Shown piece after piece: positions 43,889-46,768 of a stretch of 64,000 bases of DNA (position 1 is the first letter of the stretch; each line of letters opens with the position of its first letter). Both the position numbers and the translations under genes were made by a program. A model generated the notes under the pieces. It made no database searches. It saw only the letters and a program-made list of their open reading frames with translations, and was not told where the DNA came from. This DNA is from Tortispora ganteri (taxonomy: Eukaryota), in contig PPNB01000004.1 of NCBI GenBank assembly GCA_003707115.1, positions 496,001-560,000 on the forward strand, given 5' to 3'.

Positions 43889-44509
43889 CTAATTGTGCAA
43901 TAGAAGATCGGAAAAGTCGGAGAACTTTTCCGAGTCATCATAAAGATAAACCATGCTGTTTCTCAAGCTTATCTGCAAGCTTGTAGGGTCGAGTTCGTAT
44001 AAGACCATTACGATGGCCCAGCTCAAGGCAGCGAATGCAGGATAGACATAGCCAGACAGCTTGCCATTAAAAGAAGGTATAAGACCGTTCCGAATTGAGT
44101 ATTTAGCCATTCCCATTACGGCTCGCGAAAAGACATACAGAACCACTTGCTGGCTTACGGGACTTTGATTCCCACGACCGAACATCAAATAACCAGCTAA
44201 GACTCCAGCTACAAACGTATGGGAAAGGGTATGCTTGCCTTGAACTTTCCGGAGTACAATCGAAGTAATTTTATAGACAGCGACATATTTGGCGAGCCGT
44301 GTAGAGTGATCTAATGATGCTTTTGTAACCCCTCGAAACCGAGATTTGTATGATCCTTTCTTAAATAACAGCGCCATCACGATCGAATGGGTAACTCGCA
44401 CTTTGAAACCGTATATAAACCCGTTCCTTGCTCCTTTTAAAACCGACAGGATATCATGATTTTTCGGATCAGCAATGTATTCGTCCAACTTAGCAATTAT
44501 GCTATCCAT
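43889..44509 (-). CDS. Peroxisomal membrane protein 4 (PXMP4/PMP24, Tim17 family)
   Basis: HDILSVLKGARNGFIYGFKVR..HSIVM, QQVVLYVFSR, WAIVMVLY and SMVYLYDDS. Confidence 0.9.
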   Translation of the reverse strand: MDSIIAKLDEYIADPKNHDILSVLKGARNGFIYGFKVRVTHSIVMALLFKKGSYKSRFRGVTKASLDHSTRLAKYVAVYKITSIVLRKVQGKHTLSHTFVAGVLAGYLMFGRGNQSPVSQQVVLYVFSRAVMGMAKYSIRNGLIPSFNGKLSGYVYPAFAALSWAIVMVLYELDPTSLQISLRNSMVYLYDDSEKFSDFSDLLLHN

Positions 44510-44797
44510 TATTCACTAAAGTGTAGCGCTTGTCTATTGCAAAGTAACATGTAGCTCGCTCTTGTTTGTCATTTTCCCGAGGTTTATCCAATCTAGGTTA
44601 CGCCGGCACTGAAATTTAAACTTTCCAACTGATGCGGGGTGTCCAATCAGAAGCAACCATTTTCTTGTCTCTCTTAATTAGGTAGCTAGCTGATAGCAGT
44701 TGAGTCTAATTGTCTACGCCTATTCGGCGACTCATATTCAGTGCAGATCTATGACGCGCATATAAACACTATCGTGCACCCACCTAGTCTCCTAACT

Positions 44798-46117
44798 ATG
44801 ACTGTAAGCGGTGAAGTACTTCATATTAGCATTGGTCAAGCCGGTGCGCAGATTACGTCTGCACTGTGGGACCTGTACACCAAGGAACACGGTATTGGTC
44901 ATGATGGTCAAGCTGTAGGTGATCTCAATGGGAACTATAGCACTATCTTTCAGGAGACTCAGAAAGGATCCTTTGTCCCTAGATCTCTTTTCTTTGACTC
45001 TGACTCAGCCGCTTTAGATATTCTACGGTCTGATAAAGCAAAGGGTCTATTCCGCCCTGATTGGATATCGTCTACTATTGAAGGCAGTGCTTCCACTTAT
45101 GCGCGCGGCCGCTACGTGCTCGGCCCTGACAAAATAGAGGAAGCTGTAAACAGTATTCGCAAGGTTACAGAGTGCTGTGGAGAGCTTAAGGGTATAGTGA
45201 TTGTTCGAGGAATGGGCGGGGGAACCGGATCTGGTCTAGGATCCGGCATTATTGAGGAACTAGCAAACGAATTCAAAAAACCAACCAAACTTGAATACGC
45301 CATTTATCCTTCTCCAGGTCTAGCTACTGGTGTAGTTGAACCATATAACTCAGCACTAGCTGCAAATGCGTCCAATGGACATGTTGACTGTTCCTTCATT
45401 GTCGATAATCAAGCACTTTATAGAATGGCGGATCGGAAACTGGACATACCCGACGCCAAGTTTGATGTTCTTAACAATATTGTTACTCAAGGAATCTCTG
45501 GATTATCTGCATCTATGAGGTTTCCCGGAAAACTTAACATGGACATGAACGACTTTCATACCAATTTAATACCATTTCCCCGTCTCCAATACCCGATTAT
45601 ATCACTGGCACCGCTCAGCAAATCTATCTCTCACAGCATGCACAATTCCTATTCCATTACCAAAGAGGCATACAACGGATCAAATAGTCTGCTTACATGT
45701 GATACTACTCAAGGCAACTATATGGCTTCTGCATTGGTTTACAGGGGATCGTTTTCCCTGCAAGAAGTTAATGCTGCCATCGCGCGTTGCAAAGATTCTA
45801 AAGTCGTCACATTGCTAGACTGGTGTCCTACTGGATTCAAAGTGGCTCTTAGTCCCGAGCATATCCATACGGTTGCTGGATCTCCATTTAAATCGGTGGA
45901 CCAGTTCGCATGTGTGTATTCTAATCATACCGCAATCCGTCAGTCGTGGTCGTCCCTGAAGCGCAAATACGATCTTATGTTTAGACGTCGTGCGTTTGTC
46001 CATTGGTTCGTTGGTCAGGGGATGGAAGAAGGTGAGCTATTAGAAGCCCGAGAGTCATTAGACGACCTTGAAGAGCAATATGAAGAAGTTAGTGGATATA
46101 GTGCGACAGAGTACTAA
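44798..46117 (+). CDS. Divergent alpha-tubulin-like protein (439 aa from ATG 44798)
   Basis: GQAG, YARG, GGGTGSG, VVEPYNS, DWCPTGFK, RAFVHWFVGQGMEEGE and a terminal EY identify the alpha class, but many normally invariant positions are substituted. Confidence 0.9.
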   Translation: MTVSGEVLHISIGQAGAQITSALWDLYTKEHGIGHDGQAVGDLNGNYSTIFQETQKGSFVPRSLFFDSDSAALDILRSDKAKGLFRPDWISSTIEGSASTYARGRYVLGPDKIEEAVNSIRKVTECCGELKGIVIVRGMGGGTGSGLGSGIIEELANEFKKPTKLEYAIYPSPGLATGVVEPYNSALAANASNGHVDCSFIVDNQALYRMADRKLDIPDAKFDVLNNIVTQGISGLSASMRFPGKLNMDMNDFHTNLIPFPRLQYPIISLAPLSKSISHSMHNSYSITKEAYNGSNSLLTCDTTQGNYMASALVYRGSFSLQEVNAAIARCKDSKVVTLLDWCPTGFKVALSPEHIHTVAGSPFKSVDQFACVYSNHTAIRQSWSSLKRKYDLMFRRRAFVHWFVGQGMEEGELLEARESLDDLEEQYEEVSGYSATEY

Positions 46118-46274
46118 AACTGTGCTTTGCATATCGTTGTATGCTCTTTCTTTTACTTTAGAAGAGAATTAAAGAAGAACAAAAACAAATATTTACTCTC
46201 TTAGTTGTATTTTCATTATAAAAAGAATATTATTGATTATCGCTATTTACAAGATTGGCTTATGCTATATAGAT

Positions 46275-46556
46275 TCATTTTGATTGGTTGGGGAGTGTAC
46301 CTGCTTTCTCTTCTTCACGCAACTTCTCAAGGGTAGATTCGTCAATCGGCGGAATAGGAATATCGCCAAAATCATCCGGCGATACTTTCGAAAATGCGTA
46401 CATGTAGATCGCGCCCATTCCAAAAACGATTCCACTGCCTAGCAGCACGTTTTTCCAAAAAAACGGCGCTCGGGCTCTCAGCATAGCTGGTGACATTTTC
46501 CAACTTCTTGAATCTGTGTATTTCCCGATCGGTACATAATTATGTGTGCGTGTCAT
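46275..46556 (-). CDS. COA3: Cytochrome c oxidase assembly factor 3
   Basis: MSPAMLRARAPFFWKN, one TM segment, and DDFGDIPIPP. Confidence 0.88.
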   Translation of the reverse strand: MTRTHNYVPIGKYTDSRSWKMSPAMLRARAPFFWKNVLLGSGIVFGMGAIYMYAFSKVSPDDFGDIPIPPIDESTLEKLREEEKAGTLPNQSK

Positions 46557-46768
46557 GTTGTCTTTCTCTTTTTTTCTTCCTTGGTAAGATTGAATATCGA
46601 AGTGGACACACAGGTTCACCAGGGTCTTTCCCCTTTTGGGATCTTAATAGAACCATCACCTCCCCTCACGCACCTCCACCACGGTCCTTCCTCCTACAAT
46701 CTAGCTTCTTCAACATTTAGCCCCTAATAACTGTCATTTTTCTTACCAAAGGCTAGCTACATGTATCA

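Follow-up and report, generated by a model that had tools for sequence, protein, structure and literature searches.

A divergent alpha-tubulin of Tortispora with aspartate at the catalytic Glu254 position

Results

An intact alpha-class tubulin gene in Tortispora ganteri

We analyzed a stretch of 64,000 nucleotides from Tortispora ganteri (contig PPNB01000004.1, positions 496,001 to 560,000 of the forward strand; hereafter the window) and describe here a gene within it that encodes a highly divergent alpha-tubulin, hereafter the paralog. The gene is a single intronless open reading frame (ORF) at 44798-46117 on the forward strand, with 439 codons and a TAA stop at 46115-46117. Its product carries aspartate at the position of the catalytic Glu254 of alpha-tubulin. 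The features that define the gene, its class and this replacement are as follows.

44798 to 46117, forward strand: complete intronless coding sequence of the divergent alpha-tubulin paralog (translation; Pfam Tubulin and Tubulin_C; a 439-residue protein of Tortispora caseinolytica has the same start and end)
45518 to 45568, forward strand: T7 loop/H8 motif RFPGKLNMDMNDFHTNL, residues 241-257, with canonical Asn249, Asp251 and Asn258 retained (alignment)
45551 to 45553, forward strand: GAC codon for Asp252, at the catalytic Glu254 position (sequence reading; gap-free alignment to Tub1)
45851 to 45904, forward strand: S9-S10 loop of alpha-type length, including an 8-residue segment absent from beta-like tubulins (alignment)

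Both tubulin domains were found by Pfam, Tubulin (PF00091) with an E value of 9e-47 and 160.2 bits (cut-off 33) and Tubulin_C (PF03953) with an E value of 1.4e-22 and 80.7 bits (cut-off 26.6). Searching the chain sequences of the PDB with the paralog gave 213 distinct matches, the best 60 of which were all alpha chains (E values from 1e-127 to 4e-114), with yeast Tub1 (4ffb_A) at the top (E value 1.1e-127). Class scoring covered alpha and beta-like tubulins: the paralog reached 506.7 bits on a profile of 43 canonical alphas and 261.9 bits on a profile of 11 beta-like sequences. The 8-residue segment of the S9-S10 loop is a defining feature of alpha-tubulins. It is present without gaps in the paralog and in the alpha1 and alpha2 rows of our alignment, and all eight positions are gaps in each of the eight beta-like rows shown (11 identified). 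The AlphaFold2 model, calculated from a 50-sequence alignment, had a mean predicted local distance difference test score (pLDDT) of 87.3 and a predicted template modelling score (pTM) of 0.90. When this model was used as a Foldseek query, the 50 matches listed were all chains of tubulin entries, with TM scores of 0.91-0.95 and 40-44% sequence identity. The Pfam domains, the PDB matches, the alpha profile, the S9-S10 segment and the confident model together establish that the paralog belongs to the alpha class of tubulins and has an intact fold, and the initial annotation was right to call the ORF intact and alpha-class.

Aspartate replaces the catalytic glutamate

We aligned the T7/H8 motif of the paralog to Tub1 (4ffb_A) with phmmer (HMMER). 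The alignment was free of gaps, paired RFPGKLNMDMNDFHTNL with LRFDGSLNVDLNEFQTNL of Tub1 and placed Asp252 beneath the Glu of LNVDLNEFQTNL. The 17 residues of the motif include no Glu, so no alternative alignment supplies one. The Asp that had been read at the Glu254 site from the GAC codon is thus where the initial annotation had placed it. To describe the surroundings of this residue and of other elements, we took 43 canonical alphas, drawn from animals, early fungi, basidiomycetes and the two ascomycete classes, and counted as invariant the 204 columns in which conservation among them reaches 95% or more. The region boundaries used for counting kept and lost positions come from the structure of bovine tubulin. 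By this count, T7/H8 of the paralog retains 9 of 14 invariant positions, the changed ones being V250M, L252M, E254D, Q256H and V260I.

The effect of the same replacement in human tubulin, cited in the initial annotation, is indeed in print. Human E254D tubulin is able to polymerize; its hydrolysis of GTP (guanosine triphosphate) is about fourfold slower, its microtubules hardly ever undergo catastrophe, and it nucleates more readily (PMC7018511; this and the other articles cited by PMC number are drawn on here in excerpt).

Asp in this column is rare, yet not unique to Tortispora. Among the 347 tubulin proteins that we collected, the Glu254 column holds Glu in 279, Lys in 22 (beta-like), Asp in 15 and Gln in 11, with other residues or gaps in the rest. 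The 15 Asp carriers are the two Tortispora proteins and 13 other cluster representatives, all very divergent alpha-like proteins. We looked up 10 of these 13, three of which are named, namely 'tubulin alpha chain-like' proteins from Penaeus and Glandiceps and a hypothetical protein from Ranatra. The group (P0131, P0144, P0217 and ten more) includes proteins named 'tubulin alpha chain-like' that are about 700 residues long and conserved in four Penaeus species.

The paralog lies far outside normal alpha-tubulin variation

The global identity of the paralog to five canonical alphas is 43.1-45.4%, and the fungal alphas among these are 73-84% identical to one another. Its divergence is therefore far beyond the normal variation of alpha-tubulin. 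In a maximum-likelihood (ML) tree, the branch leading to the two Tortispora proteins has about 10 changes per column, and that of any other row has at most 0.7. The length of this branch is made up of changes at otherwise frozen sites, which signals a shift of constraints more than elapsed time.

The sole close relative is the protein mentioned above, CANCADRAFT_31774 (P0002) of T. caseinolytica NRRL Y-17796, a 'hypothetical protein' of 439 amino acids that is 98% identical to the paralog. Apart from P0002, a search for proteins of similar length among 5.8 billion clustered proteins gave at most 45% identity among the 120 listed of 8000 scored candidates. An exhaustive HMMER scan of 1.84 billion cluster representatives (50% identity) returned 11114 proteins at an E value of 0.001 or below, and among the best 150 of them none but P0002 was above 46% identity. 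Searching shorter proteins yielded just fragments, at most 55% identical over conserved stretches, and a search of the ESM Atlas with the paralog returned generic tubulin clusters and nothing more specific. In total, these searches covered about 15 billion proteins. The literature on Tortispora tubulin and on divergent alpha-tubulin, judged mainly by titles and abstracts, contained nothing on this gene. As far as these data reach, the paralog is confined to Tortispora; it is already in the databases and unstudied.

The gene is conserved in related genomes and under purifying selection

Sequencing-run data contained the stretch in two runs of the probable source organism and parts of it in runs of three relatives, B, C and D. 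We aligned contigs from one sequencing run for each of these relatives to the window. One contig of relative B is collinear over 43890-46608, with 187 differing letters and six gaps, none of them frame-breaking; one of these gaps is a CCT insertion 5' of the start and another lengthens the A-run at the stop by one A and preserves the TAA. For relatives C and D, 44718-46135 is spanned by a single gap-free contig that differs at 98 letters. A second contig of C and D matches only at 45989-46036, and its loose ends read a canonical alpha-tubulin that is identical over 20 residues to P0066, the canonical alpha-tubulin of 450 residues that T. caseinolytica also encodes (CANCADRAFT_43583). The second, canonical alpha-tubulin for which the initial annotation had proposed a search thus exists in T. 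caseinolytica as well as in relatives C and D. The paralog itself is syntenic and without frame-breaking insertions or deletions (indels) in the three related genomes. Unlike the coding region, the flanking intergenic DNA has many indels in these relatives or has been replaced outright. The region on the upstream side is the following.

44510 to 44797, forward strand: upstream intergenic region, alignable with C and D only over its final 80 bases, 44718-44797 (contig alignment)

In C and D, the intergenic segment 44585-44717 has given way to 138 letters of unrelated sequence and 46136-46196 to 66 letters, leaving the lengths similar. Within the 80 conserved bases, about 40 bases 5' of the ATG, the sequence ACGCGC at 44754-44759 resembles an MluI cell-cycle box (MCB), possibly by chance. 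We considered a 5' mini-exon, with an ATG near 44632 and a CTAAC about 10 bases before the ATG at 44798, which would give the protein an MRGE start. We dropped this model because its splice sites are non-canonical, the exon region (44585-44717) is not conserved in C and D, and the T. caseinolytica protein likewise starts without an intron.

The paralog (P0001) and its T. caseinolytica ortholog (P0002) differ at 9 of 439 residues, which requires at least 11 nucleotide changes. Two of the differences are in the H1-S2 loop, four in the C-terminal tail and three elsewhere in the body of the protein. All nine fall on positions that were already non-canonical in the paralog, and Asp252 and the terminal Glu-Tyr are unchanged. 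Divergence is about 7% at the nucleotide level (relatives C and D) and 2% at the protein level (T. caseinolytica). Assuming for the T. caseinolytica gene the same 80-98 coding differences as in C and D, the synonymous rate (dS) is 0.27-0.36, the nonsynonymous rate (dN) is 0.011 and dN/dS is 0.030-0.041. This estimate equals the mean dN/dS of 0.03 given for fungal alpha-tubulins (PMC5381371). The conclusion is robust to the choice of relative because B, C and D are all about 7% diverged over the stretch. For comparison, in the neighboring Tim17-family gene 18 of the substitutions listed for C and D lead to 3 amino-acid changes, and 40 of those listed for B lead to 12. Protein changes in the paralog are few against this neighbor. 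Hence, the paralog is under purifying selection that is at least as strong.

Longitudinal elements are retained and lateral loops remodelled

The remaining altered and retained elements of the protein are the following, all of them identified by alignment.

44798 to 44824, forward strand: N-terminus MTVSGEVLH, with three extra residues followed by Gly-Glu-Val-Leu-His, the pattern of ascomycete alpha2 (TubB-type) tubulins (from an alignment that includes 15 alpha2 and 28 further alphas)
44900 to 44941, forward strand: shortened H1-S2 ('Lys40') loop, 6 residues under the consensus and without Lys; two of the nine residues that differ in the T. caseinolytica ortholog fall here
44996 to 45007, forward strand: T2 loop DSDS, residues 67-70, with Asp69 in place of canonical Glu71 as in the alpha2 class
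45080 to 45097, forward strand: T3 loop EGSAST, residues 95-100, with the canonical positions changed as D98G, A99S, N101S and N102T
45215 to 45235, forward strand: T4 glycine-rich signature GGGTGSG, residues 140-146, intact
45605 to 45637, forward strand: M-loop region, 2 residues shorter by deletion and of low identity, the consensus being matched in 3 of 14 columns
46019 to 46090, forward strand: H11-H12 loop and H12, where conservation is highest in the protein (24 of 28 invariant positions retained)
46091 to 46114, forward strand: short C-terminal tail SGYSATEY, about 8 residues under the consensus and without an acidic run, terminal Glu-Tyr kept; site of four of the nine ortholog differences, none of them in the EY

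The T2 loop DSDS, the T3 loop EGSAST, the start MTVSGEVLH and the tail EVSGYSATEY, all pointed out in the initial annotation, are read in the sequence, and so is the shorter Lys40 loop, there being no Lys between residues 30 and 55. Overall, 142 of the 204 near-invariant alpha positions are kept in the paralog and 62 are changed. The T1 motif GQAG is unchanged at residues 13-16, and GGGTGSG, VVEPYN, WCPTGFK, Asn249, Asp251 and Asn258 are also intact. Besides H11-H12, the regions that keep most of their invariant positions are S5/T5 (13 of 15), the H1-S2 loop (9 of 10) and the N-terminus with T1 and H1 (12 of 15). The worst-hit ones are T3 (2 of 6 kept), H5 (1 of 5), H2-S3 (3 of 6), H7 (6 of 11) and S10 (3 of 6). 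The regions least identical to the consensus are H5 (18%), the M-loop (21%), H4 (25%) and the S9-S10 loop (29%). The replacements E71D, D98G, A99S, N101S and S140G affect what we take to be the gamma-phosphate and Mg surroundings of the GTP bound by alpha-tubulin itself, and canonical D69, A100, G143-G146, E183, N206 and N228 are kept.

Judged from the alignment, the longitudinal machinery and the outer ridge of H12 are retained in the paralog, and remodelling affects its lateral loops and the gamma-phosphate surroundings of its own GTP. This pattern bears on the suggestion in the initial annotation that the paralog binds motors and microtubule-associated proteins weakly. The shortened tail fits this suggestion. 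The rest of the protein fits it poorly because the longitudinal elements and the H12 ridge are retained; the H11-H12 outer ridge is the best-kept region of all, and the terminal Glu-Tyr is present in both orthologs.

Origin of the paralog

Fungal alphas form two classes, alpha1 and alpha2, with Aspergillus nidulans TubB belonging to alpha2, and the alpha2 class is stated to have been lost in Basidiomycota, Saccharomycotina and Taphrinomycotina (PMC5381371). The alpha2 proteins that we retrieved start with M(R/K)GEILH. At the extra column before Glu3, 90% or more of the 15 alpha2 rows have Gly and 90% or more of the 28 others have a gap; the paralog has Gly followed by EVLH. The alpha2 class therefore shows the same extra Gly and the same GE[IV]LH start, in line with the initial remark that the GE start recalls Aspergillus tubB.

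We then scored signature columns, that is, columns in which the 15 alpha2 rows agree to 90% or more, the 28 other rows do so as well, and the two sets have different states. At the 11 columns of this strict set, the paralog has the alpha2 state in four, the state of the other alphas in none and neither in seven. The four alpha2 states are the extra Gly, His at canonical position 6, Asp at canonical position 71 (E71D) and Tyr at canonical position 267 (F267Y). The corresponding control counts (alpha2, other, neither) were 2, 10 and 0 for the Hanseniaspora-cluster alpha P0096; 0, 10 and 1 for Dacryopinax; 0, 11 and 2 for T. caseinolytica alpha1; and 4, 7 and 1 for Saitoella. With a relaxed set of 23 columns the paralog has 5 alpha2 states, 6 of the other alphas and 12 of neither. 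These few signature sites give a hint of descent from the ascomycete alpha2 (TubB) class.

The profile scores give an alpha2 origin no support. The paralog reached 459.9 bits on an alpha2 profile (38 rows) and 500.7 bits on a non-alpha2 profile (built from 64 listed rows minus any used as probes), and its deficit on the alpha2 profile is proportionally equal to that of alpha1 controls. Tree placement under ML with a site-heterogeneous model was unstable: the paralog was part of a polytomy in a quick tree and stood beside long-branch yeast alpha1 rows in a more careful one, with support of 49/29. The approximately unbiased (AU) test did not reject either of the two opposite constraints, grouping with alpha2 (p 0.338) or with the alpha1 of T. 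caseinolytica (p 0.277). We also considered kinship with the Hanseniaspora-cluster alpha and another long-branch yeast row on account of shared rare residues; these are all conservative replacements, and we set this candidate aside as homoplasy or long-branch attraction. Taken together, a lineage-specific duplicate of alpha1 is slightly more likely than a relic of the ascomycete alpha2 (TubB-type) class, each having somewhat less than an even chance.

One control deserves mention in its own right. The alpha-tubulin P0063 of Saitoella complicata (Taphrinomycotina) groups with the alpha2 clade, supported by an SH-aLRT value of 97 (approximate likelihood-ratio test of the Shimodaira-Hasegawa-like kind) and by a bootstrap of 70, and has 4 of 12 alpha2 states. 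The 2014 survey, by contrast, has alpha2 lost in Taphrinomycotina (PMC5381371).

Genomic surroundings

The genes around the paralog have unrelated housekeeping functions and form no cytoskeletal cluster. They encode Sgt2-like, VPS9-ankyrin, Bre4-like, Tim17-family, Coa3-like, Atg22, DUF3591, cap-guanine methyltransferase and La-domain proteins and a NatA auxiliary subunit. The codon bias of the paralog is weak (effective number of codons 58.3, inside the range of 48-61 of 22 genes in the window), which hints at modest, low or conditional expression.

A small ORF on the reverse strand downstream of the paralog (46275-46619) matches the Coa3 coiled-coil family with 25.9 bits, slightly under the Pfam cut-off of 27; as listed it begins at GTG, and the real ORF is probably shorter. 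The whole 64-kilobase window is gene-dense, with 44 ORFs of at least 150 amino acids (nested and overlapping frames included) and about 41% G+C. ARAGORN found no transfer RNA genes in the window (1-64000).

Discussion

On balance, we slightly favor the view that the paralog is a functional, specialised, lattice-competent alpha isotype of the Tortispora lineage that slows hydrolysis and acts beside the canonical alpha-tubulin. That it is a specialised paralog had been put forward in the initial annotation, and the intact gene in T. caseinolytica, the lack of frame-breaking indels in three relatives and the estimated dN/dS of 0.03-0.04 agree with this and speak against a decaying duplicate. The paralog would bind GTP at its own non-exchangeable site, pair with beta-tubulin via the nucleotide face and enter protofilaments via its T7/H8 face. 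Because the catalytic Glu is shortened to Asp at T7/H8, it is predicted, from the human mutant, to slow the hydrolysis of GTP on the neighboring beta subunit. A lattice containing the paralog would then remain longer in a GTP-like state and resist catastrophe, making the microtubules more stable. The remodelled lateral loops (M-loop, H1-S2 and H2-S3) and the short, non-acidic tail could further alter the properties of the lattice and its partners, and the conserved H12 ridge and terminal Glu-Tyr would retain the binding of motors and of CAP-Gly-type partners, which read the C-terminal aromatic residue of tubulin. The data show its alpha class, the Asp, which invariant positions are kept or lost, and purifying selection on the gene; heterodimer formation, lattice entry, slowed hydrolysis and the level of expression are what we infer for the paralog. 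A role in sexual development (meiosis or sporulation) could be proposed by analogy with TubB only, and this link is weakened because T. caseinolytica, 'f.a.' according to the title of a paper and hence without a known sexual state, keeps the gene.

Several points weigh against this view. The 62 changed positions among the 204 near-invariant ones include 4 of 6 in T3, E71D, S140G and 5 of 11 in H7. The T3 positions, E71 and S140 are presumably nucleotide contacts at alpha's own site, and with these and the H7 positions changed, GTP binding or the geometry of the dimer could differ more than we assume. The 2-residue deletion in the M-loop means that lattice entry is not assured. The effect of E254D is that in human tubulin, and the adjacent V250M, L252M and Q256H could compensate for it or worsen it. 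Within the 64-kilobase window, tblastn found no second tubulin, and the canonical copy is known from the genomes of relatives. Lastly, the dN/dS value is indirect, as it joins the nucleotide totals of C and D to the T. caseinolytica protein, which possibly come from different genomes.

The paralog might instead work outside ordinary microtubules, either in a separate polymer with a second, equally divergent beta-type tubulin or away from the lattice in capping, in nucleation or in the regulation of tubulin homeostasis. The extreme shift of constraint, with a branch of about 10 changes per column next to values of 0.7 or less in the other rows, would suit such a role, as would the loss of four of six invariant positions in T3. 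The elements of lateral contact are the least conserved (identity to the consensus 21% with a deletion in the M-loop, 33% in H2-S3 and 38% in H1-S2). A divergent beta partner is conceivable because the early-branching yeasts Yarrowia and Galactomyces reportedly keep a long-branch beta2-tubulin (PMC5381371). However, the H12 ridge and the longitudinal elements are in good part retained, and the loops that changed most in the paralog are also the most variable in canonical alphas; the M-loop, for example, has just three invariant columns, two of which are kept. We therefore regard a role outside ordinary microtubules as unlikely.

We see a low probability that the paralog is an ordinary, largely redundant and fast-evolved alpha isotype, whose altered residues, the Asp among them, are compensated and confer no special dynamics. 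Glu to Asp is a conservative change, and E71D is normal across the alpha2 class. Fast-evolving yeasts such as Hanseniaspora likewise gather conservative replacements in alpha-tubulin, and in Aspergillus overexpression of either alpha isotype largely rescues the loss of the other (review PMC9294176). Against this, the 62 changed near-invariant positions are far above the number in any other fungal row, and departures from the 85% consensus number 110 in the paralog versus 33 in the Hanseniaspora-cluster alpha. The single E254D change in human tubulin already has a strong phenotype (PMC7018511), and the derived sequence is strongly constrained today, which speaks for a distinct function under selection. 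The very low identity to all other tubulins and the weak codon bias could also point to a functionless duplicate in decay, a pseudogene in the making, and we dismiss this as very unlikely given the ORF that is intact in the window and in T. caseinolytica, the absence of frame-breaking indels in three further genomes whose adjacent intergenic DNA is full of indels, a protein divergence of 2% versus about 7% for nucleotides, and a confident AlphaFold2 fold.

Returning to the paralog as a specialised, lattice-competent isotype, a more far-reaching version would make it the only surviving alpha2 in budding yeasts, re-tooled as a slow-hydrolyzing subunit, possibly with a long-branch beta2-type partner, to build hyperstable arrays for a stage of the life cycle such as the shaping of ascospores. 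Twisted ascospores give the genus Tortispora its name. This version is a long shot.

Alpha-tubulin ranks with the most conserved proteins of eukaryotes, and its Glu254 switch has a central part in dynamic instability. In Tortispora, a yeast that can be cultured and has a compact genome keeps, under strong selection, a natural equivalent of the engineered, hydrolysis-slowing Glu-to-Asp change, together with remodelled lateral loops and a stripped tail. It could thus serve as a simple system for asking what a cell gains from a slow-hydrolyzing subunit, which part of the alpha-tubulin sequence is indispensable and whether early budding yeasts retained the supposedly lost alpha2 class. The value of the finding is limited by the protein being in the databases already and by the divergent alpha-like proteins of other lineages that also have Asp in the Glu254 column.

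Comparison with known systems

The 13 other divergent proteins with Asp in this column resemble the paralog in being intact alpha-like paralogs in which the catalytic Glu and other conserved loops have changed. They come from unrelated lineages, are 32-40% identical to the paralog and include none that is fungal by the names given, and none of them is a known ortholog of it.

Compared with canonical alpha-tubulin (Tub1, 4ffb_A; T. caseinolytica P0066), the paralog is alike in its two domains, its fold (TM score 0.94 to 4ffb_A), the length of its S9-S10 loop, the motifs GQAG, GGGTGSG, VVEPYN and WCPTGFK, the H12 ridge and the C-terminal aromatic residue. It differs in its low identity of 43-45%, the replacement of Glu254 and of Glu71 by Asp, the change of T3 from EDAANN to EGSAST, and shorter H1-S2 (by 6 residues), M-loop (by 2) and tail (by about 8, without the acidic run).

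With the alpha2 (TubB) proteins the paralog shares the extra Gly before Glu3, the GE[IV]LH start, Asp71, Tyr267 and the status of a second alpha beside alpha1. TubB is required for sexual development before meiosis I (review PMC9294176). Among the matches listed, members of the class are 82-94% identical to the alpha2 protein P0123 and animal alphas about 70%, whereas the paralog is 43-45% identical to alpha2. All alpha2 rows in our set retain Glu254, where the paralog has Asp.

The only direct functional model for this change is human TUBA1B E254D (Roostalu et al. 2020, PMC7018511), which has the same Glu-to-Asp replacement. In the human protein it is one engineered change in a canonical alpha; in Tortispora the Asp is natural, fixed in at least two lineages and set amid V250M, L252M, Q256H and V260I.

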